From NCBI RefSeq assembly GCF_029227855.1, contig NZ_CP074356.1: DNA of 64,000 nt; one strand, 5' to 3'. Position numbers and translations under genes: made by a program. The notes under the pieces were generated by a model. It had not been told where the DNA came from, made no database searches, and saw nothing but the letters and a program-made list of their open reading frames with translations. Shown piece after piece: positions 2,995 through 48,240 of this stretch (position 1 is the stretch's first letter; every line of letters begins with the position of its first letter). Source of the DNA: Escherichia coli. GTDB taxonomy: Bacteria; Pseudomonadota; Gammaproteobacteria; Enterobacterales; Enterobacteriaceae.

Positions 2995-6049
<3,055 letters not shown>

Positions 6050-6961: not shown

Positions 6962-7572
6962 TATCTTTCAGCGCTCATAAGAAGCACACTCCGACAACGA
7001 TTAATCGCAGTCCAGAGAAGCAGAATTGAAGCAATGCTCCATAAAAGATTATTCCATTGCATCCATTGTGGATAAATGGCAATGGCCAGACCCCACAGAC
7101 CAAATATTAACGCGCGATCGCTTTTGCCAAATGGACCGACATAACTACGAATACCGTTAATCGTCTGCGCGAGTAAACCGCAAAACTCGGTCAATATGGT
7201 GCAAAATAACATGATTATCACGAGTGATGCGTTACTTTCCGGTAAAAATAAAAACGGTAAATAGAGCGCAATATCGGAAATAACATCGCCAGTCTCATTC
7301 AAAATCGCCCCAAGACGTGTTTGCTGATTGCACTCACGCGCCAACATGCCATCCAGCGCATTGAGTGCCATACGAATAAAAAGCACAATGGGCAATAGCA
7401 AAAAGAGGATGGGTTGTGCCACCAACATCAACAGCAATCCGCTAAGAAGAGAAAGTGCCAGTGCAGCAAGAGTGATGTGATTCGCTGTAACATGGTGCTT
7501 ATTAAGCCAAAACATCGTCGGCCTTAACAGCGACTGAAAGAGCGGTTTTATCTGGTAGAGCGTCATTATCAA
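6961..7572 (-). CDS. ynbA: CDP-alcohol phosphatidyltransferase-family membrane protein
   Basis: 203-aa hydrophobic ORF, first gene of the ynbABCD operon. Confidence 0.85.
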   Translation of the reverse strand: MIMTLYQIKPLFQSLLRPTMFWLNKHHVTANHITLAALALSLLSGLLLMLVAQPILFLLLPIVLFIRMALNALDGMLARECNQQTRLGAILNETGDVISDIALYLPFLFLPESNASLVIIMLFCTILTEFCGLLAQTINGIRSYVGPFGKSDRALIFGLWGLAIAIYPQWMQWNNLLWSIASILLLWTAINRCRSVLLMSAER

Positions 7573-10965: not shown

Positions 10966-11131
10966 CGCACCCTGCCCTGTAATAAAACGGATTGAGAAAA
11001 ATCAGTATAGAAACGAAAAGAGATAAATAATGCGAAGGCGTAAACAAGATTACTGGATGAGTTGCTCTATTGTCCTGAAAGACACCAAAACAAAACGCGT
11101 AAAGCGCCGCATTCGGCAATAAAATAAATAT

Positions 11132-11155
11132 CCTCCGGCATAGCCGGAGGTTTTT
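11132..11155. terminator. GC-rich hairpin plus T-run between ydbC upstream region and the IS element
   Basis: cctccggc-ata-gccggagg followed by ttttt on the plus strand. Confidence 0.45.
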
Positions 11156-11159
11156 CAAA

Positions 11160-11880
11160 TGCGCCTATAAGGCTCTCTTACCAGCCGCGCCCTAACAGGC
11201 GCACACGATCTGACATTTGCATCCAACTTCGTTACTTACGGCCCGTAAACGGGCTGCCCGGATAGGGAATCGATAACTGCTCTCCCATTTTATCCTCTTC
11301 AAGCTGGTGCTTTATGTAATCCTGTATCTTCGCCGTGTTCTTACCCACCGTATCGACGTAGTACCCTCTGCACCAGAACTCCCTGTTCCTGTATTTGAAT
11401 TTCAAATCACCAAACTGCTCGTAAAGCATCAGACTGCTTTTCCCTTTCAGATATCCCATAAAGCCGGATACGCTCATTTTGGGCGGGATCTCCACAAGCA
11501 TATGGATATGATCTGCACAGCATTCAGCTTCCAGAATCCGTACACTTTTCCACTCACACAGCTTTCTCAAAATACTGCCTATTGCTCTACGCTTCTCTCT
11601 GTAGAACACCTGTCTTCGGTATTTTGGCGCAAAAACTATGTGATATTTACAGTTCCATCGGGTGTGCGCTAAGCTCTTTTCGTTCCCCATTGGGACCCCC
11701 TTTTGATTTCTTGTTTGACACTTGCAGTTGCCAGACCGCAAGGTGTTTTAACAAATCAAAAGGGGTTTTAATAACTGGCTTAAAGCTGAAAGCTTTCCGG
11801 AACCCCCAGCCTAGCTGGGGGTTTTCTGTGCACAAAAAACCGCAACCTGTATCAGCGTTGCGGTTTAGGTATCACATGCT
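11160..11880 (-). mobile_element. IS200-like insertion sequence (IS200/IS605 family); boundaries approximate
   Basis: Single Y1/HuH transposase gene flanked by short non-coding arms with stem-loops (cccccagc-ctag-gctggggg at 11805-11823; aaccgcaac...gttgcggtt at 11840-11866); about 0.7 kb, as expected for IS200; ends not mapped. Confidence 0.7.
11232..11690 (-). CDS. tnpA: IS200/IS605-family transposase TnpA (Y1 HuH)
   Basis: MGNEKSLAHTRWNCKYHIVFAPKYRR...HIHMLVEIPP (HuH motif)...; ATG at 11688-11690 preceded by aaaggggg RBS; the 169-aa track ORF has a spurious N-terminal extension. Confidence 0.9.
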   Translation of the reverse strand: MGNEKSLAHTRWNCKYHIVFAPKYRRQVFYREKRRAIGSILRKLCEWKSVRILEAECCADHIHMLVEIPPKMSVSGFMGYLKGKSSLMLYEQFGDLKFKYRNREFWCRGYYVDTVGKNTAKIQDYIKHQLEEDKMGEQLSIPYPGSPFTGRK

Positions 11881-23043: not shown

Positions 23044-23327
23044 GTCATCACCTTTACGATTCCAGTTTTCATGATTTAATTAAAAACACGAATCACGTAT
23101 TTTTATGAAAGTTACACAATGGTTAACTAAAATCACAAATTTTGTATGTTTGAACTGTGACGAATTTCGCACCCTATTTTTATAAATCATTATTTATCAG
23201 TGCATTAATGTTTTTCGCAGTTGCTATACAGATCGCATAGTTAACATTTCGTTAAAAGACCACTTGCTTTTTATGATTCGCGATTTAACTATTAGCAACA
23301 GAAATGTGAAACATCTGGAGAGTAGCG
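23044..23327. promoter_or_regulatory. Divergent paaA / paaZ promoter region
   Basis: 284-bp AT-rich spacer between divergently transcribed paaA and paaZ; individual operator sites not mapped here. Confidence 0.5.
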
Positions 23328-36186: not shown

Positions 36187-39100
36187 ATGATTACTATTGA
36201 CGGTAATGGCGCGGTTGCTTCGGTGGCGTTTCGCACCAGTGAAGTTATCGCCATCTACCCTATTACCCCCAGTTCCACGATGGCAGAACAGGCTGATGCC
36301 TGGGCCGGAAACGGCTTGAAGAACGTTTGGGGAGACACACCACGCGTGGTTGAAATGCAGTCGGAAGCGGGTGCTATCGCTACCGTGCATGGCGCTTTGC
36401 AGACGGGTGCCCTTTCAACATCGTTTACGTCATCGCAGGGTTTGCTGCTGATGATCCCGACGCTGTACAAACTGGCAGGCGAACTCACACCGTTTGTCCT
36501 GCATGTAGCGGCACGTACCGTTGCCACACATGCACTCTCTATTTTTGGCGATCATTCCGACGTCATGGCGGTGCGCCAGACGGGTTGCGCGATGTTGTGT
36601 GCGGCAAACGTCCAGGAAGCGCAAGACTTTGCTCTCATTTCGCACATCGCGACGCTGAAAAGCCGCGTGCCATTTATTCATTTCTTTGATGGTTTCCGCA
36701 CGTCCCACGAAATCAATAAAATTGTCCCGTTGGCCGATGACACGATTCTTGAACTGATGCCGCAGGCCGAAATTGATGCTCATCGCGCCCGGGCGCTCAA
36801 CCCGGAACATCCGGTGATCCGCGGTACGTCCGCCAATCCTGACACTTATTTCCAGTCTCGCGAAGCCACCAACCCCTGGTACAACGCGGTCTATGACCAT
36901 GTTGAACAGGCGATGAATGATTTCGCTGCCGCGACAGGTCGTCAGTATCAGCCGTTTGAGTATTACGGGCATCCGCAAGCGGAACGGGTGATTATCCTGA
37001 TGGGCTCTGCCATTGGCACATGTGAAGAAGTGGTTGATGAATTGCTGACCCGTGGCGAAAAAGTCGGCGTGCTGAAAGTTCGCCTGTACCGCCCCTTCTC
37101 CGCCAAACACTTGCTGCAAGCTCTGCCGGGATCCGTGCGCAACGTGGCGGTACTGGACAGAACCAAAGAACCCGGTGCCCAGGCAGAACCGCTCTATCTG
37201 GATGTGATGACTGCACTGGCAGAAGCCTTTAATAATGGCGAGCGCGAAACCCTGCCCCGTGTCATTGGTGGGCGCTATGGTCTTTCATCCAAAGAATTTG
37301 GCCCGGACTGTGTACTGGCGGTATTTGCCGAGCTCAACGCGGCTAAACCGAAAGCGCGCTTTACGGTTGGTATTTACGATGATGTGACCAATCTGTCACT
37401 GCCGTTGCCGGAAAACACCCTGCCAAACTCGGCGAAACTGGAAGCCTTGTTTTATGGCCTTGGTAGTGATGGCAGCGTTTCCGCGACCAAAAACAATATC
37501 AAGATTATCGGTAATTCCACGCCGTGGTACGCACAGGGCTATTTTGTTTACGACTCCAAAAAGGCGGGCGGCCTGACAGTTTCTCACCTTCGCGTGAGCG
37601 AACAGCCGATTCGTTCCGCTTATCTCATTTCCCAGGCTGATTTTGTTGGCTGCCACCAGTTGCAGTTTATCGACAAATATCAGATGGTTGAGCGTTTAAA
37701 ACCTGGCGGCATTTTCCTGCTCAACACGCCGTACAGCGCAGATGAAGTGTGGTCGCGCTTGCCGCAGGAAGTTCAGGCCGTGCTAAACCAGAAAACAGCG
37801 CGCTTCTATGTGATTAACGCAGCGAAAATCGCCCGCGAATGTGGCCTGGCGGCCCGTATTAATACCGTCATGCAGATGGCTTTTTTCCATCTGACGCAAA
37901 TTCTGCCTGGCGATAGCGCCCTCGCAGAATTGCAGGGTGCGATTGCCAAAAGTTACAGTAGCAAAGGTCAGGATCTGGTGGAGCGCAACTGGCAGGCTCT
38001 GGCGCTGGCGCGTGAATCCGTAGAAGAAGTTCCGTTGCAGCCGGTTAATCCGCACAGCGCCAATCGACCGCCTGTGGTTTCCGATGCCGCTCCTGATTTC
38101 GTGAAAACCGTTACCGCGGCGATGCTCGCCGGGCTTGGTGATGCCCTCCCCGTTTCGGCGCTGCCGCCAGACGGCACCTGGCCGATGGGCACCACGCGCT
38201 GGGAAAAACGCAATATCGCCGAAGAGATCCCCATCTGGAAAGAGGAACTCTGTACCCAATGTAACCACTGCGTCGCCGCTTGCCCACACTCAGCTATTCG
38301 CGCAAAAGTGGTACCGCCTGAAGCGATGGAAAACGCCCCTGCCAGCCTGCATTCGCTGGATGTGAAATCGCGTGATATGCGCGGGCAGAAATATGTCTTG
38401 CAGGTGGCACCGGAAGATTGCACCGGCTGTAACCTGTGCGTCGAAGTTTGCCCGGCGAAAGACCGTCAGAATCCAGAGATTAAAGCCATCAATATGATGT
38501 CGCGCCTGGAACATGTCGAAGAAGAAAAAATCAATTACGATTTCTTCCTCAACCTGCCAGAAATCGACCGTAGCAAACTGGAACGTATTGATATTCGTAC
38601 ATCGCAGCTGATTACACCGCTGTTTGAATATTCCGGTGCTTGCTCCGGTTGTGGCGAGACGCCGTATATTAAATTGCTGACTCAGCTCTATGGCGACCGG
38701 ATGTTGATCGCTAACGCCACCGGCTGTTCTTCAATTTATGGCGGTAACCTGCCCTCTACACCGTATACTACCGATGCCAACGGTCGTGGACCGGCATGGG
38801 CGAACTCGCTGTTTGAAGATAACGCCGAATTTGGCCTTGGTTTCCGCCTGACAGTCGATCAACACCGTGTCCGCGTGCTGCGTCTGCTGGATCAATTTGC
38901 CGATAAAATCCCGGCGGAATTACTGACTGCGTTGAAATCAGACGCCACGCCAGAGGTTCGTCGAGAACAGGTCGCAGCTTTACGCCAGCAACTCAACGAT
39001 GTTGCCGAAGCACATGAACTGATGCGTGACGCAGATGCACTGGTGGAAAAATCAATCTGGCTGATTGGTGGCGACGGCTGGGCTTACGATATCGGCTTTG

Positions 39101-39711
39101 GCGGTCTGGATCATGTATTGAGTTTGACGGAAAACGTCAACATTCTGGTGCTGGATACGCAATGCTATTCCAATACCGGTGGTCAGGCGTCAAAAGCGAC
39201 ACCGCTGGGTGCAGTAACTAAGTTTGGCGAGCACGGCAAACGTAAAGCGCGTAAAGATCTTGGCGTCAGTATGATGATGTACGGCCATGTTTATGTGGCG
39301 CAGATTTCTCTCGGCGCGCAGCTGAACCAGACGGTGAAAGCAATTCAGGAAGCGGAAGCGTATCCGGGACCATCGCTGATCATCGCTTATAGCCCGTGTG
39401 AAGAGCATGGTTACGATCTGGCTCTCAGCCACGACCAGATGCGCCAACTCACTGCTACCGGCTTCTGGCCGCTATATCGCTTCGATCCTCGTCGTGCCGA
39501 TGAAGGCAAACTGCCGCTGGCGCTGGATTCACGCCCGCCGTCAGAAGCACTGGAAGAAACGTTACTTCATGAGCAGCGTTTCCGTCGTCTGAATTCGCAG
39601 CAGCCAGAAGTGGCAGAACAGTTATGGAAAGATGCTGCAGCTGATTTGCAAAAACGCTATGACTTCCTGGCACAAATGGCCGGAAAAGCGGAAAAAAGCA
39701 ACACCGATTAA
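36187..39711 (+). CDS. ydbK: Pyruvate:flavodoxin/ferredoxin oxidoreductase
   Basis: 1174-aa ORF with two 4Fe-4S ferredoxin motifs (CTQCNHCVAACP, CTGCNLCVEVCP) and TPP-binding region. Confidence 0.92.
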   Translation: MITIDGNGAVASVAFRTSEVIAIYPITPSSTMAEQADAWAGNGLKNVWGDTPRVVEMQSEAGAIATVHGALQTGALSTSFTSSQGLLLMIPTLYKLAGELTPFVLHVAARTVATHALSIFGDHSDVMAVRQTGCAMLCAANVQEAQDFALISHIATLKSRVPFIHFFDGFRTSHEINKIVPLADDTILELMPQAEIDAHRARALNPEHPVIRGTSANPDTYFQSREATNPWYNAVYDHVEQAMNDFAAATGRQYQPFEYYGHPQAERVIILMGSAIGTCEEVVDELLTRGEKVGVLKVRLYRPFSAKHLLQALPGSVRNVAVLDRTKEPGAQAEPLYLDVMTALAEAFNNGERETLPRVIGGRYGLSSKEFGPDCVLAVFAELNAAKPKARFTVGIYDDVTNLSLPLPENTLPNSAKLEALFYGLGSDGSVSATKNNIKIIGNSTPWYAQGYFVYDSKKAGGLTVSHLRVSEQPIRSAYLISQADFVGCHQLQFIDKYQMVERLKPGGIFLLNTPYSADEVWSRLPQEVQAVLNQKTARFYVINAAKIARECGLAARINTVMQMAFFHLTQILPGDSALAELQGAIAKSYSSKGQDLVERNWQALALARESVEEVPLQPVNPHSANRPPVVSDAAPDFVKTVTAAMLAGLGDALPVSALPPDGTWPMGTTRWEKRNIAEEIPIWKEELCTQCNHCVAACPHSAIRAKVVPPEAMENAPASLHSLDVKSRDMRGQKYVLQVAPEDCTGCNLCVEVCPAKDRQNPEIKAINMMSRLEHVEEEKINYDFFLNLPEIDRSKLERIDIRTSQLITPLFEYSGACSGCGETPYIKLLTQLYGDRMLIANATGCSSIYGGNLPSTPYTTDANGRGPAWANSLFEDNAEFGLGFRLTVDQHRVRVLRLLDQFADKIPAELLTALKSDATPEVRREQVAALRQQLNDVAEAHELMRDADALVEKSIWLIGGDGWAYDIGFGGLDHVLSLTENVNILVLDTQCYSNTGGQASKATPLGAVTKFGEHGKRKARKDLGVSMMMYGHVYVAQISLGAQLNQTVKAIQEAEAYPGPSLIIAYSPCEEHGYDLALSHDQMRQLTATGFWPLYRFDPRRADEGKLPLALDSRPPSEALEETLLHEQRFRRLNSQQPEVAEQLWKDAAADLQKRYDFLAQMAGKAEKSNTD

Positions 39712-39738
39712 ATGCACTGGATAAGGATTATCCAATTC

Positions 39739-39844
39739 TAAAAAAAAGCCCGGACGACTGTTCGGGCTTGTCTCATTATTTGTTGGATAAACAGTAACAA
39801 GGGTCCAACAGAAAATAATCTTTGTGACAATAAAGGCATATAAC
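39739..39844 (-). ncRNA. micC: MicC small regulatory RNA
   Basis: Minus strand reads GTTATATGCCTTTATTGTCACA... ending in hairpin gcccgaacagtcgtccgggc plus U-tract; divergent from ompN; recognised from memory. Confidence 0.65.
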
Positions 39845-40072
39845 CCGCGAAGAATAACGCATCACTATTTAAATGTATAATTTTTATTTTGTATATGTCG
39901 CCAACAATATATTCACCAAACTTATCATCATTTCCGTAGAATTATTTGATTAAGGTTTTACTTAAGGCGTAACAAATGATATTTATCGGCTAACGGAACT
40001 TCTCCTTTAGGATGTTTTCACTCCCCAAAATGGGGATGAAAAGGCAAATAAAATAACTAAAGGATTTATTCA

Positions 40073-41191
40073 ATGAAAAGCAAAGTACTGGCATTTTTAA
40101 TTCCTGCCCTGCTCGCCGCAGGTGCTGCACATGCAGCCGAAGTTTATAATAAAGACGGCAACAAATTAGATCTGTATGGCAAAGTTGATGGCCTACATTA
40201 TTTTTCTGATAATACCAATAGTGATGGTGATCAAACTTATGTGCGTTTTGGTTTTAAGGGTGAAACGCAAATCACGGATCAACTGGTTGGGTATGGCCAG
40301 TGGGAATATAACGTGCAGGCTAATGGCTCTGAAGGTGATAAAGGTGATTCCTGGACTCGTCTTGCTTTTGCCGGTCTGAAATTTGGTGACCTGGGTTCAT
40401 TCGACTATGGTCGTAATTATGGCGTAATGTACGACATCGAAGGCTGGACCGATATGCTACCGGAATTCGGTGGTGACTCTTATACCAAAGCCGATAACTA
40501 TATGACCGGTCGAGCCAATGGCGTAGCAACCTATCGTAATACTGATTTCTTCGGTCTGGTTGATGGTCTGAATTTTGCGTTACAGTACCAGGGTGCGAAT
40601 GAAAACCAGGTCACCCATGAGCAAGAAGGTACCGCAAACGGTGGTGATCGAAACATTAAGAACGCCAATGGCGACGGTCTTGGCATCTCTACTACCTACG
40701 ACTTAGGTATGGGCATGAGTTTTGGTGCCGCCTATACCAGTTCCGATCGCACTAACCAGCAGGCTGAATTCTCTACCGCAAAAGGCGATAAGGCTGATGC
40801 CTGGACTGCCGGGGCAAAATACGATGCTAACAATATCTACCTGGCGACCATGTATTCTGAAACGCGTAACATGACACCTTACGGTGATTCAACAAATACG
40901 ATTGCCAACAAAACCCAGAACTTTGAAGTTACTGCGCAGTATCAGTTCGATTTTGGGCTGCGTCCGGCAGTCTCTTTCCTGATGTCTAAAGGCAAGGATT
41001 TGGTCGGTACCGACGGTGATAAAGATCTGGTTAAATACGCCGATGTTGGCGCGACTTACTATTTCAACAAAAATATGTCCACCTACGTTGACTATAAAAT
41101 CAACCTGTTGGATGAAGATGACAGCTTCTACGCTGCCAATGGCATCTCTACCGATGATATTGTCGCTTTAGGTCTGGTTTATCAGTTCTAA
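40073..41191 (+). CDS. ompN: Outer-membrane general porin OmpN
   Basis: 372-aa ORF with signal peptide, porin beta-barrel signature and C-terminal YQF. Confidence 0.9.
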
Positions 41192-41250: not shown

Positions 41251-41766
<516 letters not shown>

Positions 41767-41773
41767 CACTAAC

Positions 41774-41799
41774 GCCCGCACATTGCTGCGGGCTTTTTG
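41774..41799 (+). terminator. Rho-independent terminator after uspF
   Basis: gcccgca-cattgc-tgcgggc followed by ttttt. Confidence 0.65.
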
Positions 41800-41941
41800 A
41801 TTCATTTCGCAAATGTGCTGACATTTTCCCCTCTAATCCGTACCATACACGCCACAGTTTTTATATCAGATTTCTTATGCTGGGCGTTCCGGCATGACGC
41901 ATACTCTTCTGATGCCATATAACGAATTGAGTCGCTTTTAA

Positions 41942-42877
41942 ATGTCGCAAAATCAAGAAATTAGTAAGAAAGAACAATACAACCTGAACAAATTACAAAA
42001 ACGTCTGCGTCGTAACGTGGGCGAAGCCATTGCTGACTTCAATATGATTGAAGAAGGCGATCGCATCATGGTTTGCCTCTCCGGGGGTAAAGATAGCTAT
42101 ACCATGCTGGAAATTCTGCGCAATTTGCAGCAAAGCGCGCCAATCAATTTTTCGCTGGTGGCTGTCAACCTCGATCAAAAACAACCGGGCTTCCCGGAAC
42201 ACGTTCTGCCCGAGTATCTTGAAAAGCTGGGCGTTGAGTACAAGATTGTGGAAGAGAACACTTACGGTATCGTGAAAGAGAAGATTCCGGAGGGCAAAAC
42301 CACTTGCTCACTGTGTTCTCGTCTTCGTCGCGGAATTCTTTACCGTACCGCAACGGAACTGGGAGCGACGAAGATCGCGCTGGGTCACCATCGTGACGAT
42401 ATCCTGCAAACGTTGTTCTTAAATATGTTCTACGGCGGCAAGATGAAAGGTATGCCTCCGAAACTGATGAGCGATGATGGCAAACATATCGTGATTCGCC
42501 CGCTGGCCTACTGCCGCGAGAAAGATATTCAGCGCTTTGCCGATGCAAAAGCGTTCCCGATTATTCCGTGCAACCTGTGCGGTTCACAGCCTAACCTGCA
42601 ACGTCAGGTGATTGCTGACATGTTGCGTGACTGGGATAAACGTTATCCGGGGCGTATCGAGACGATGTTCAGCGCGATGCAGAATGTGGTGCCGTCGCAT
42701 CTGTGCGATACCAACCTGTTCGATTTCAAAGGCATTACCCACGGTTCTGAAGTGGTTAACGGGGGTGATCTGGCGTTTGATCGCGAAGAGATCCCTCTAC
42801 AACCGGCGGGTTGGCAGCCTGAAGAAGATGAAAATCAGTTGGATGAGTTACGGCTGAATGTGGTTGAAGTGAAATAA
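41942..42877 (+). CDS. ttcA: tRNA 2-thiocytidine(32) synthetase
   Basis: 311-aa ORF with PP-loop SGGKDS. Confidence 0.9.
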
Positions 42878-42914
42878 CCCGGATAGCGCCCGATGCGCAA
42901 GCTTACCGGGCTAC

Positions 42915-42965
42915 TCTTATGGAGGCCGGATAAGACGCGGCCAGCGTCGCATCCGGCAATCCCGA
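42915..42965. repeat. REP/BIME-like extragenic palindrome between convergent ttcA and dbpA
   Basis: ggccggataagacgcggccagcgtcgcatccggca resembles the GCCGGATG...CATCCGGC REP family. Confidence 0.5.
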
Positions 42966-43005
42966 AGAAGATGTTTACTCTTGCCCCCTGCGATTCAACA
43001 TTTCA

Positions 43006-44379
43006 TTATTTTAATAACCGCACCCGGCACGTTTTTCCTTTAATCTTCCCGCCCTGTAACTGTTTCCATGCTTTATGAGCAACAGCCTGACGCACCGCGA
43101 TATAGACATGCGCCGGATGCACGGCGATTTTGCCAATATCTGCGCCATCAAGCCCAATATCTCCTGTCAGCGCACCTAATACATCACCCGGGCGCATTTT
43201 GGCTTTTTTCCCGCCATCGATACATAACGTTGCCATTTCGGCTTCCAGCGGCACAATGGAACTATTAACTGGCGGCGTTTGCCAGTTAAGTTTTATCTGC
43301 AACATGTCAGAAATGATATTGGCCCGCTGTGCTTCTTCCGGGGCACAGAAACTGATCGCCAGACCGCTATTTCCTGCACGCGCTGTACGACCGATGCGAT
43401 GTACATGAACTTCAGGGTCCCACGCCAGCTCAAAGTTCACCACCAGCTCAAGCGATTTAATATCCAGACCTCGCGCAGCAACATCAGTCGCAACCAGTAC
43501 ACGGGCGCTACCGTTAGCAAAACGTACCAGGGTCTGATCGCGATCACGTTGCTCCAGATCGCCGTGTAACGACATTGCACTTTGCCCTACTTCATTCAGC
43601 GCGTCGCAGACAGCCTGGCAATCTTTTTTGGTATTGCAAAACACCACGCAAGAGGATGGCTGATGCAAACTTAATAACCGTTGCAACAGAGGAATTTTGC
43701 CTTTGCTGGATGTCTCATAAAATTGTTGTTCAATAGGTGGCAGAGCATCTGTTGAGTCAATTTCAATCGCTAAAGGATCGCGTTGCACTCGTCCGCTGAT
43801 TGCGGCGATGGCTTCCGGCCAGGTTGCCGAAAACAGAAGCGTCTGTCGAGATGCTGGCGCAAAACGGATGACATCATCAATAGCGTCGCTAAATCCCATA
43901 TCCAGCATGCGGTCGGCCTCATCCATCACCAGCGTATTCAACGCATCCAGTGATACCGTGCCTTTTTGCAGATGATCCAACAAACGGCCCGGCGTTGCCA
44001 CGATAATATGCGGCGCATGTTGCAACGAATCACGCTGCATACCGAACGGTTGACCACCGCACAACGTCAAAATTTTGGTATTTGGCAGAAAACGCGCCAG
44101 CCGACGCAATTCACCTGCCACCTGATCCGCCAGTTCACGCGTAGGACACAGCACTAAAGCCTGGGTTTGAAATAGCGACGCATCAATTTGCTGTAACAAG
44201 CCGAGGCCAAAAGCCGCCGTTTTGCCGCTGCCGGTTTTCGCCTGCACGCGAACATCTTTTCCGGCAAGGATCGCCGGAAGCGCGGCGGCCTGCACCGGCG
44301 TCATGGTTAAATAACCCAACTCATTAAGGTTCGTGAGTTGGGCGGGAGGCAAAACATTCAGGGTAGAAAAAGCGGTCAC
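43006..44379 (-). CDS. dbpA: ATP-dependent DEAD-box RNA helicase (23S rRNA-dependent)
   Basis: 457-aa ORF with AKTGSGKT Walker A and DEAD box; GTG start giving MTAFSTLNVLPP. Confidence 0.92.
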   Translation of the reverse strand: MTAFSTLNVLPPAQLTNLNELGYLTMTPVQAAALPAILAGKDVRVQAKTGSGKTAAFGLGLLQQIDASLFQTQALVLCPTRELADQVAGELRRLARFLPNTKILTLCGGQPFGMQRDSLQHAPHIIVATPGRLLDHLQKGTVSLDALNTLVMDEADRMLDMGFSDAIDDVIRFAPASRQTLLFSATWPEAIAAISGRVQRDPLAIEIDSTDALPPIEQQFYETSSKGKIPLLQRLLSLHQPSSCVVFCNTKKDCQAVCDALNEVGQSAMSLHGDLEQRDRDQTLVRFANGSARVLVATDVAARGLDIKSLELVVNFELAWDPEVHVHRIGRTARAGNSGLAISFCAPEEAQRANIISDMLQIKLNWQTPPVNSSIVPLEAEMATLCIDGGKKAKMRPGDVLGALTGDIGLDGADIGKIAVHPAHVYIAVRQAVAHKAWKQLQGGKIKGKTCRVRLLK

Positions 44380-44408
44380 AATCTATTCTCGTGGTCATCG
44401 ACGCAAAG

Positions 44409-44582
44409 TTAGCAGGCGCGTATCCTCGCAGATCTACGCTCACGATGCGACAATTTAATCGGTTCTTCATCGGGTGGTGGGTCAGGCATGGGTTGCGGAC
44501 GAGGGATCGGATCGGGCACTGGAACAGGATCGCCAGGAATCGGTTCAGGGACAGGAATTTGCAAATAAATAAGTGTCGTCAT
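44409..44582 (-). CDS. Candidate small proline-rich ORF (57 aa) just upstream of dbpA; hypothetical
   Basis: ATG at 44580-44582 with ggaggg RBS 4-5 nt upstream; translation MTTLIYLQIPVPEPIPGDPVPVPDPIPRPQPMPDPPPDEEPIKLSHRERRSARIRAC; below the 60-aa cutoff of the ORF track. Confidence 0.35.
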   Translation of the reverse strand: MTTLIYLQIPVPEPIPGDPVPVPDPIPRPQPMPDPPPDEEPIKLSHRERRSARIRAC

Positions 44583-44639
44583 ATTTCCCTCCGGTCATTG
44601 GGTGGACTCTTAAAGGGTAGACGCTGATAAATAACAGGC

Positions 44640-44761
44640 AAAAAAAAGCCGACTCATCAAAGTCGGCGTCGTACGAATCAATTGTGCTATGCAGTAATTC
44701 AAAAAAGGAAGTAAGACAATATGGAGCGCAACGCCCATCGCTTGACGTTGCATTCACCTGC
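44640..44761 (-). ncRNA. fnrS: FnrS small regulatory RNA
   Basis: Minus strand reads GCAGGTGAATGCAACGTCAAGCGATGGGCG... ending in hairpin gccgactttgatgagtcggc plus T8; recognised from memory. Confidence 0.7.
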
Positions 44762-44796
44762 AAGAGAGATATTGCCCTGAATGGGTAGAGAGTTTA

Positions 44797-44810
44797 TTGA
44801 CTTCGCTCAA
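44797..44810. promoter_or_regulatory. FNR-type box (TTGAC-N4-CTCAA) centred about 42 bp upstream of the fnrS 5' end
   Basis: ttgacttcgctcaa matches the FNR TTGAT-N4-ATCAA consensus at class II spacing. Confidence 0.6.
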
Positions 44811-44856
44811 ACTTTACGGCGTTTTTGTATACAGACCGCCGGAAAAATTGCTTTTG

Positions 44857-45861
<1,005 letters not shown>

Positions 45862-46094
45862 TTATTTTGTAGTCTAGCCTTCTGGCCCTGTTACGCAACA
45901 TCTCATCACCCCATTACCCTGAAATGATTAATAAAATTCTGTCTAAATTGAATACAAAAAGCAAAATGCTTTTCCGTATACAAATCGTGTGAAGTGTTAA
46001 ATAGCGTCTATCATTATCAGAATTATCTGATCATATGACGTGGCTTTTTTGCGATCGGATAGCAACAAAAATTGATAAAAATAACGGGATCTCA

Positions 46095-47327
46095 ATGATT
46101 ACGCACAACTTCAATACCCTGGACTTACTCACCAGTCCTGTCTGGATCGTTTCGCCATTTGAGGAACAGTTAATTTATGCCAATAGCGCGGCGCGACTGT
46201 TGATGCAAGACCTCACGTTTAGTCAGCTACGAACCGGTCCCTATTCCGTCTCCTCACAAAAAGAACTGCCAAAATACCTCTCCGATCTGCAAAACCAACA
46301 CGATATTATCGAAATCCTCACCGTTCAACGTAAAGAAGAGGAAACAGCATTAAGCTGTCGGCTTGTTTTGCGAAAGCTGACAGAAGCAGAACCGGTGATT
46401 ATTTTCGAAGGTATCGAAGCACCGGCAACGCTGGGTTTAAAAGCCAGTCGCTCGGCAAATTATCAGCGCAAAAAACAAGGTTTTTATGCGCGCTTTTTTC
46501 TGACTAACTCTGCACCAATGTTGTTGATTGACCCCTCACGAGATGGCCAAATCGTTGATGCTAACCTCGCCGCGCTCAATTTCTATGGCTATAACCATGA
46601 AACGATGTGCCAGAAACATACCTGGGAAATAAATATGCTCGGGCGACGCGTCATGCCTATCATGCATGAAATTTCGCATTTACCCGGTGGCCATAAGCCT
46701 TTGAATTTTGTTCATAAACTGGCGGATGGTTCGACTCGTCATGTGCAGACCTATGCCGGTCCGATTGAAATTTATGGCGACAAGCTCATGTTATGTATTG
46801 TGCATGATATTACTGAGCAAAAACGGCTGGAGGAGCAGCTGGAACATGCTGCCCACCATGACGCGATGACCGGATTACTGAATCGGCGACAGTTTTATCA
46901 CATTACCGAGCCAGGCCAAATGCAGCACCTCGCCATCGCTCAGGATTACAGCTTATTGCTCATCGACACAGATCGTTTTAAACACATTAACGATCTCTAT
47001 GGGCATTCTAAAGGTGATGAGGTGTTATGCGCCCTCGCCCGCACTCTCGAAAGTTGCGCTCGCAAAGGCGATTTGGTGTTTCGTTGGGGAGGCGAAGAGT
47101 TTGTCTTATTGCTACCAAGAACCCCACTGGATACCGCGCTTTCGCTGGCTGAAACTATCCGCGTAAGCGTGGCAAAAGTGAGTATTTCGGGCTTACCACG
47201 CTTTACCGTCAGCATTGGTGTGGCGCATCACGAAGGAAATGAAAGCATCGATGAACTGTTTAAACGCGTTGATGATGCTTTGTATCGGGCGAAAAATGAT
47301 GGACGCAACCGCGTGCTGGCGGCATAA
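46095..47327 (+). CDS. dgcM: Diguanylate cyclase with PAS domains
   Basis: 410 aa from MITHNFNTLD; GGDEF domain with RWGGEEF active-site motif. Confidence 0.9.
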   Translation: MITHNFNTLDLLTSPVWIVSPFEEQLIYANSAARLLMQDLTFSQLRTGPYSVSSQKELPKYLSDLQNQHDIIEILTVQRKEEETALSCRLVLRKLTEAEPVIIFEGIEAPATLGLKASRSANYQRKKQGFYARFFLTNSAPMLLIDPSRDGQIVDANLAALNFYGYNHETMCQKHTWEINMLGRRVMPIMHEISHLPGGHKPLNFVHKLADGSTRHVQTYAGPIEIYGDKLMLCIVHDITEQKRLEEQLEHAAHHDAMTGLLNRRQFYHITEPGQMQHLAIAQDYSLLLIDTDRFKHINDLYGHSKGDEVLCALARTLESCARKGDLVFRWGGEEFVLLLPRTPLDTALSLAETIRVSVAKVSISGLPRFTVSIGVAHHEGNESIDELFKRVDDALYRAKNDGRNRVLAA

Positions 47328-48138: not shown

Positions 48139-48233
48139 ACCGGCACAGAGGAGACCAGGCCGGATTTAAGACGAGGATGCACTGCTGTGTGTACTGTAGA
48201 GTCTGGCGGATGTCGACAGGCTCTATTTTTTTA
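48139..48233 (+). ncRNA. mcaS: McaS (IsrA) small regulatory RNA
   Basis: ACCGGCACAGAGGAGACCAGGCCGGATTTAAGACG...GTCGACAGGCTCTATTTTTTT between smrA and abgR; recognised from memory. Confidence 0.6.
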
Positions 48234-48240
48234 TGCAGTT

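Follow-up and report, generated by a model that had tools for sequence, protein, structure and literature searches.

On the strength of sequence comparison, the place where uspF meets ttcA in the window (the whole 64 kb stretch of Escherichia coli DNA analyzed here) is very probably an intact and unoccupied attachment site (attB) of Rac-family lambdoid phages, which would lie within the first 50 bp of ttcA. For the annotation of this genome, it means that the strain is not a Rac lysogen, that its TtcA carries the ancestral N-terminus and that a landing site for Rac-family phages is intact, and little beyond: an empty Rac site is an ordinary polymorphism, already described in 2015. The modest addition made here is that occupancy of attB varies among members of the window's own clone, some of which harbor a large relative of Rac carrying sitABCD. 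The genes and signals around the site are arranged as follows.

36187-39711, + strand: ydbK/nifJ, open reading frame of the window
40073-41191, + strand: ompN, open reading frame of the window
41332-41766, + strand: uspF, universal stress protein F, 144 aa (open reading frame and NCBIfam equivalog NF011581)
41767-41941, + strand: native uspF-ttcA spacer, 175 bp, between the uspF stop and the ttcA ATG
41774-41798, + strand: uspF terminator-like hairpin GCCCGCACATTGCTGCGGGC (41774-41793) followed by the T-run TTTTT, found by consensus scan
41942-42877, + strand: ttcA, tRNA 2-thiocytidine(32) synthetase, 311 aa (NCBIfam equivalog NF007972)
43006-44379, - strand: dbpA, open reading frame of the window
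44857-45840, - strand: zntB, open reading frame of the window

The initial annotation had described uspF and ttcA as neighbors about 175 bp apart and ttcA as an uninterrupted frame of 311 codons, and both statements hold: the uspF stop ends at 41766 and the ttcA ATG starts at 41942, leaving exactly 175 bp, while the ttcA frame is intact and its product scores above the NF007972 cut-off (513.6 bits against 272, residues 3-290 covered). UspF is a full-length member of NF011581 (303.3 bits, cut-off 166, residues 1-144 covered) and shares 100% identity with the UspF of strain NRZ14408. In TtcA, the PP-loop ATP-binding motif SGGKDS occupies residues 47-52, and the two cysteine pairs, CSLC (122-125) and PCNLCG (209-214), are complete with Cys122, Cys125, Cys210, and Cys213 all present; Cys122, Cys125, and Cys213 are reported ligands of the Fe-S cluster. 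The spacer is 99-100% identical to the spacer separating uspF from the pseudogene ttcC in K-12, in which the strong terminator-like hairpin is found with the same sequence. A promoter scan of the spacer returned one weak promoter-like site (41818-41846), at chance level, and an Rfam scan of the 175 bp matched no RNA family; this segment presumably carries the native promoter and ribosome-binding region of ttcA.

What the site looks like once occupied can be read from K-12. The MG1655 record places the cryptic prophage Rac at 1411899..1434958 (23,060 bp, intR to ynaE/ynaM) between ttcA and ttcC, with intR and xisR directly upstream of ttcA and the 51-bp pseudogene ttcC adjoining uspF at the far end of Rac; the earlier statement that a prophage of about 23 kb separates uspF from ttcA in K-12, at the 5′ end of the latter, thus agrees with the record. 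We aligned the window with both K-12 junctions (uspF-ttcC and intR-ttcA), the check that the initial annotation had proposed, and this placed the attB core at 41966-41991, in the 5′ region of ttcA.

41942-41965, + strand: bacterial left arm of attB, ttcA codons 1-8, identical to the K-12 ttcC pseudogene
41966-41991, + strand: 26-bp common core of attB, AAGAAAGAACAATACAACCTGAACAA, ttcA codons 9-17, where the two K-12-identical stretches overlap
41977-41991, + strand: 15-bp sub-segment of the core, ATACAACCTGAACAA, putative strand-exchange region according to attL and attR of Rac-SA53

From uspF through codon 17 of ttcA, the window is identical to the uspF-ttcC side of K-12, and its identity to the intR-ttcA side starts at codon 9. 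The core is present as a single copy in the window and as two copies in MG1655, one at each end of Rac (1411899-1411924 and 1434959-1434984). On its left side, attB agrees with the bacterial part of attR (ttcC), and on its right side with that of attL (K-12 ttcA), while the 24 bases of the left arm differ from the phage-supplied arm of K-12, ATGCAAGAAAATCAACAAATTACA (MQENQQIT), by seven bases and four amino acids; at the junction of uspF/ttcC with the prophage, the phage DNA reads GTAAGGGCAAAAATCAC. When Rac is removed from K-12 in silico, the resulting sequence is colinear with the window across 12.9 kb and the site is unbroken. The junction in the window contains no chimeric bases and reads as a clean attB. 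The Rac-SA53 prophage allows the exchange to be narrowed further. Three mismatches separate its attL from its attR, all in the left portion of the 26-bp core, and the two ends have in common only a 15-bp stretch next to the phage right arm; the crossover would therefore be confined to the right-hand 15 bp (41977-41991), provided that no later mutation has occurred. The idea that the site stays empty because its attB is a degenerate or variant form unusable by Rac-type integrases is effectively refuted, given that the core is identical to the attL/attR core of K-12 and that a clone-mate with identical flanks (see below) has been lysogenized at exactly this position.

On the uspF side, identity to K-12 is 93%, which had suggested a recombination boundary at the att site. 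A sliding comparison with K-12 found divergence only in ompN (72-84% DNA identity), uspF and the spacer being 99-100% identical, and the boundary was therefore rejected. The ompN gene of the window is a divergent 372-aa allele, whose product is 82% identical to OmpN of NRZ14408 and is named "porin OmpC" by PGAP in relatives. Only about 46 of 5,415 records matched the left-flank query at 95% identity or more, and the exact OmpN protein of the window recurs across diverse backgrounds, with 546 index blocks of public assemblies containing it.

A lysogen would show intR, xisR, and phage genes between uspF and ttcA, where the window has a gap of only 175 bp. Neither the 23-kb K-12 Rac nor the 52.9-kb prophage of strain JNEC-KY178 gave any match when compared with all 64 kb by blastn (E<=1e-3) and tblastx (E<=1e-6), which upholds, for the whole window and these two Rac-type prophages, the earlier report that no integrase, recombination, or phage structural gene is present. 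It had also been claimed that the window "preserves the pre-integration configuration". As a description of attB structure this stands, and no result speaks against it; as a statement of history it does not follow, for precise excision by IntR/XisR has been found experimentally to regenerate exactly this attB sequence and the corresponding N-terminus (Liu et al. 2015, PMC4632033), and a lineage that had never been lysogenic could not be told from a cured one by the site alone.

The most visible consequence of the empty site is in the protein. TtcA begins with MSQNQEIS in the window and with MQENQQIT in K-12; the phage-supplied N-terminus is MKENQQIT in CB9615, JNEC-KY178, and 683R6, and the DNA of SA53 reads MQENQKNT. 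In the work of Liu et al. (2015, Sci Rep 5:16074, PMC4632033), excision of Rac altered TtcA at four residues of its N-terminus. According to the same study, the TtcA′ N-terminus, which was proposed as the ancient form, is found in all strains of E. coli and Shigella that lack a rac-like prophage, and TtcA′ differs functionally from K-12 TtcA under carbenicillin. The N-terminus encoded in the window is the ancestral TtcA′ form of non-lysogens and matches this grouping. Beyond the att site, the body of K-12 ttcA has about 97% DNA identity to that of the window, and in the region ...PAGWQPEE... the window protein has a Gly where K-12 has a Cys. A different count was published for ttcA after Rac excision from MG1655, with no more than three bases and two residues (Q6E and T8S) altered (PMC11014345). 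It conflicts with the seven base and four residue changes that we obtain from comparing attL with attR and with those of Liu et al. 2015; the lower count likely results from the clipping of reads where mismatches cluster close to the start codon.

The window is mosaic in make-up and shares only about 98% identity with most E. coli genomes. Among complete genomes, just one is near-identical, that of JNEC-KY178, assembly GCF_055661385.1, with five mismatches in about 47 kb (four over window positions 1-41991 and one over 41966-47084), and the identity on the left side stops exactly at 41991. At that point JNEC-KY178 carries a prophage of 52,916 bp bounded by the core.

NZ_AP045174.1, 2686427-2739316: Rac-family prophage of JNEC-KY178, 52.9 kb, between two copies of the core

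Its genes include sitABCD, tail, head, terminase, and lysis genes, trkG, ydaSTUV, racR, sieB, kilR, recET, xisR, and intR; the last two are intact and are followed by the second core copy and ttcA. About 16 kb of the prophage is about 98% identical to K-12 Rac. We also noted that sitABCD adjoins attR, that an IS110-family insertion lies among the tail genes, that lom is frameshifted, and that two tRNA genes are present besides trkG.

Clone-mates were sought in public assemblies through the rare DbpA allele of the window, which returned 12 contigs: the site is empty in six (L017, represented by two samples, with four similar places, and L020) and occupied in five (L018 with three similar places, and L019), and the last, L021, ends before the site. 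The two occupied contigs that were retrieved, L018 and L019, are 100% identical to JNEC-KY178, prophage arm included. A search through the exact OmpN protein was discarded as a way to clone-mates, the allele being widespread and the contigs returned being only 98.7-99.4% identical to the window. Within the clone there are only about 11 variable sites in a star-like pattern, none of which groups the window with either the empty or the occupied class: derived bases at 7215, 23071, and 42985 are private to the window, those at 23294 and 40092 are private to JNEC-KY178, and 40786T is common to the empty contigs L017 and L020. The empty genomes thus fall into at least two sublineages (the window; L017 plus L020), and the retrieved lysogens are mutually identical.

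How the site came to be empty in the window can be weighed on this basis. One might suppose that an ancestor carried a 52.9-kb prophage of the JNEC-KY178 type and that precise excision by IntR/XisR restored attB and the TtcA′ N-terminus. Such a history would agree with the fact that JNEC-KY178, the one complete genome so close to the window, is lysogenic at this core and has intact intR and xisR, that about half of the contigs of the clone are occupied, that excision of Rac restores exactly this sequence (PMC4632033; PMC11014345) and that no SNP unites the window with the other empty genomes. Against it, the complete identity of the lysogen contigs, prophage arm included, suggests one recent acquisition, and the existence of two or more empty sublineages would call for one to two losses in place of one gain; we consider excision a possible but rather unlikely history. 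One acquisition within a tight sublineage of lysogens is the more parsimonious account, the alternative being one or two precise losses, and we lean toward the reading that the lineage of the window never acquired the prophage, which the SNPs, too few to decide, mildly favor.

The clone offers a mildly useful comparison. It is tempting to suggest, although we do so tentatively and would put the chance at somewhat under even, that the ttcA attB is in active use within one E. coli clone whose members differ by about one SNP per 10 kb and exist with or without an apparently complete 52.9-kb Rac-family phage. If true, a functional relative of Rac with the sitABCD iron/manganese transporter as cargo would have moved in or out very recently, and the strain of the window would be a natural isogenic non-lysogen in which the effects on the host of the phage and of the swap of the TtcA N-terminus and upstream region could be tested. 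JNEC-KY178 and related read sets would supply the near-isogenic lysogens, and pairing the two could measure the effect of a sitABCD-carrying Rac-like phage.

The empty site is common in the species at large. The 1.8-kb uspF-ttcA segment is contiguous in 2,487 of 5,413 complete E. coli genomes (46%), and in the others the match breaks at the ttcA start. K-12-type intR stands directly upstream of ttcA in 1,836 complete genomes. In most of the remaining occupied genomes, only the end of intR finds a match, and the annotation names a different tyrosine integrase. An earlier survey of 638 strains (Ramisetty and Sudhakari 2019, PMC6379469) located integration at the ttcA 5′ end and reported Rac in 69% of them. 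In some cells, Rac-type prophages excise spontaneously, so that attB reads mixed with attL/attR reads could occur in a lysogenic culture (PMC4632033), and the adjacency of uspF and ttcA might then be an artefact of an assembly that followed the reads of a cured subpopulation or collapsed the prophage. We regard this as highly improbable, since independent assemblies of clone-mates (L017, L020) share the empty junction, since nearly half of the complete genomes have it as well, and since the window junction is a clean attB.

A few other features of the window are worth recording. An IS200C copy (11129-11833) lies between pdxI and paaY; it is absent from NRZ14408, is found at the same site in 69 complete genomes, and contains a match to the Rfam family STnc490 (11700-11823, - strand, 146 bits). 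JNEC-KY178 has 24 places matching the IS200C query. The ynbD gene (2995-4302, - strand) is broken into at least four open reading frames, tblastn giving three pieces with a gap, and it is annotated "frameshifted" in the clone-mate JNEC-KY178. Between ttcA and dbpA, the GC-rich positions 42885-42960 (…GGCCGGATAAGACGCGGCCAGCGTCGCATCCGGC…) are palindromic and resemble a REP element, just beyond which lies 42985, the single window-specific SNP on the right flank. Three small RNAs were placed at the positions expected from synteny with K-12.

39732-39847, - strand: sRNA MicC
44644-44761, - strand: sRNA FnrS
48139-48234, + strand: sRNA McaS

The anatomy of the site is observed; the mechanism by which it would be used we infer from Liu et al. 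2015 and from what is well established for tyrosine integrases in general. The circular form of a Rac-type phage would carry intR, a gap of 51 bp, a look-alike of the ttcA 5′ end (ATG plus eight codons), and then the core. The exchange between this attP and attB, carried out by IntR, would take place within the core, most likely in ATACAACCTGAACAA (41977-41991), and integration would displace the native ttcA 5′ end, the spacer, and uspF by 23-53 kb, leaving the ttcC pseudogene behind. In the integrated state, ttcA would be read from the phage-supplied start downstream of intR, with four N-terminal residues changed. In the window, such an integration would be either absent or exactly reversed, and ttcA would presumably be expressed from its own upstream region in the TtcA′ form. 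No record of the phage collection covers 80% or more of the reconstructed attP, as a free phage with a contiguous attP would, and the matches to attP found there are prophage-style deposits that include host flanks.

In comparison with the Rac attB of K-12 (ttcA/ttcC), the site itself shows no difference: the position is the same, the core is identical, and the left and right arms correspond to ttcC and ttcA, respectively. An intR-ttcA junction of the same kind is found in O55:H7 CB9615, in the phage record vB_EcoS-683R6, and in Rac-SA53, the record of which annotates a 26-bp attP/attB at the position equivalent to the core of the window. The ttcA attB is used alike by Rac-SA53, by CP-933R/Sp10 of O157:H7, and by the 52.9-kb sitABCD prophage of JNEC-KY178, and a different prophage, with NleG, SopA-like, and Peptidase_M85 genes, occupies the same site in strain MEI003. 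Full-length Rac-family prophages have intR and xisR just upstream of ttcA together with a surrogate ttcA 5′ end, whereas the window has none of these. The principle is shared with e14 at icd and with other prophages that insert into a gene and bring a substitute gene end: attP bears a near-copy of that end and keeps the gene intact with a few substitutions (PMC6379469). Yet e14 and most phages of this kind replace the 3′ end of their target, while Rac-type phages replace the 5′ end, and as a result the upstream expression signals are exchanged too.
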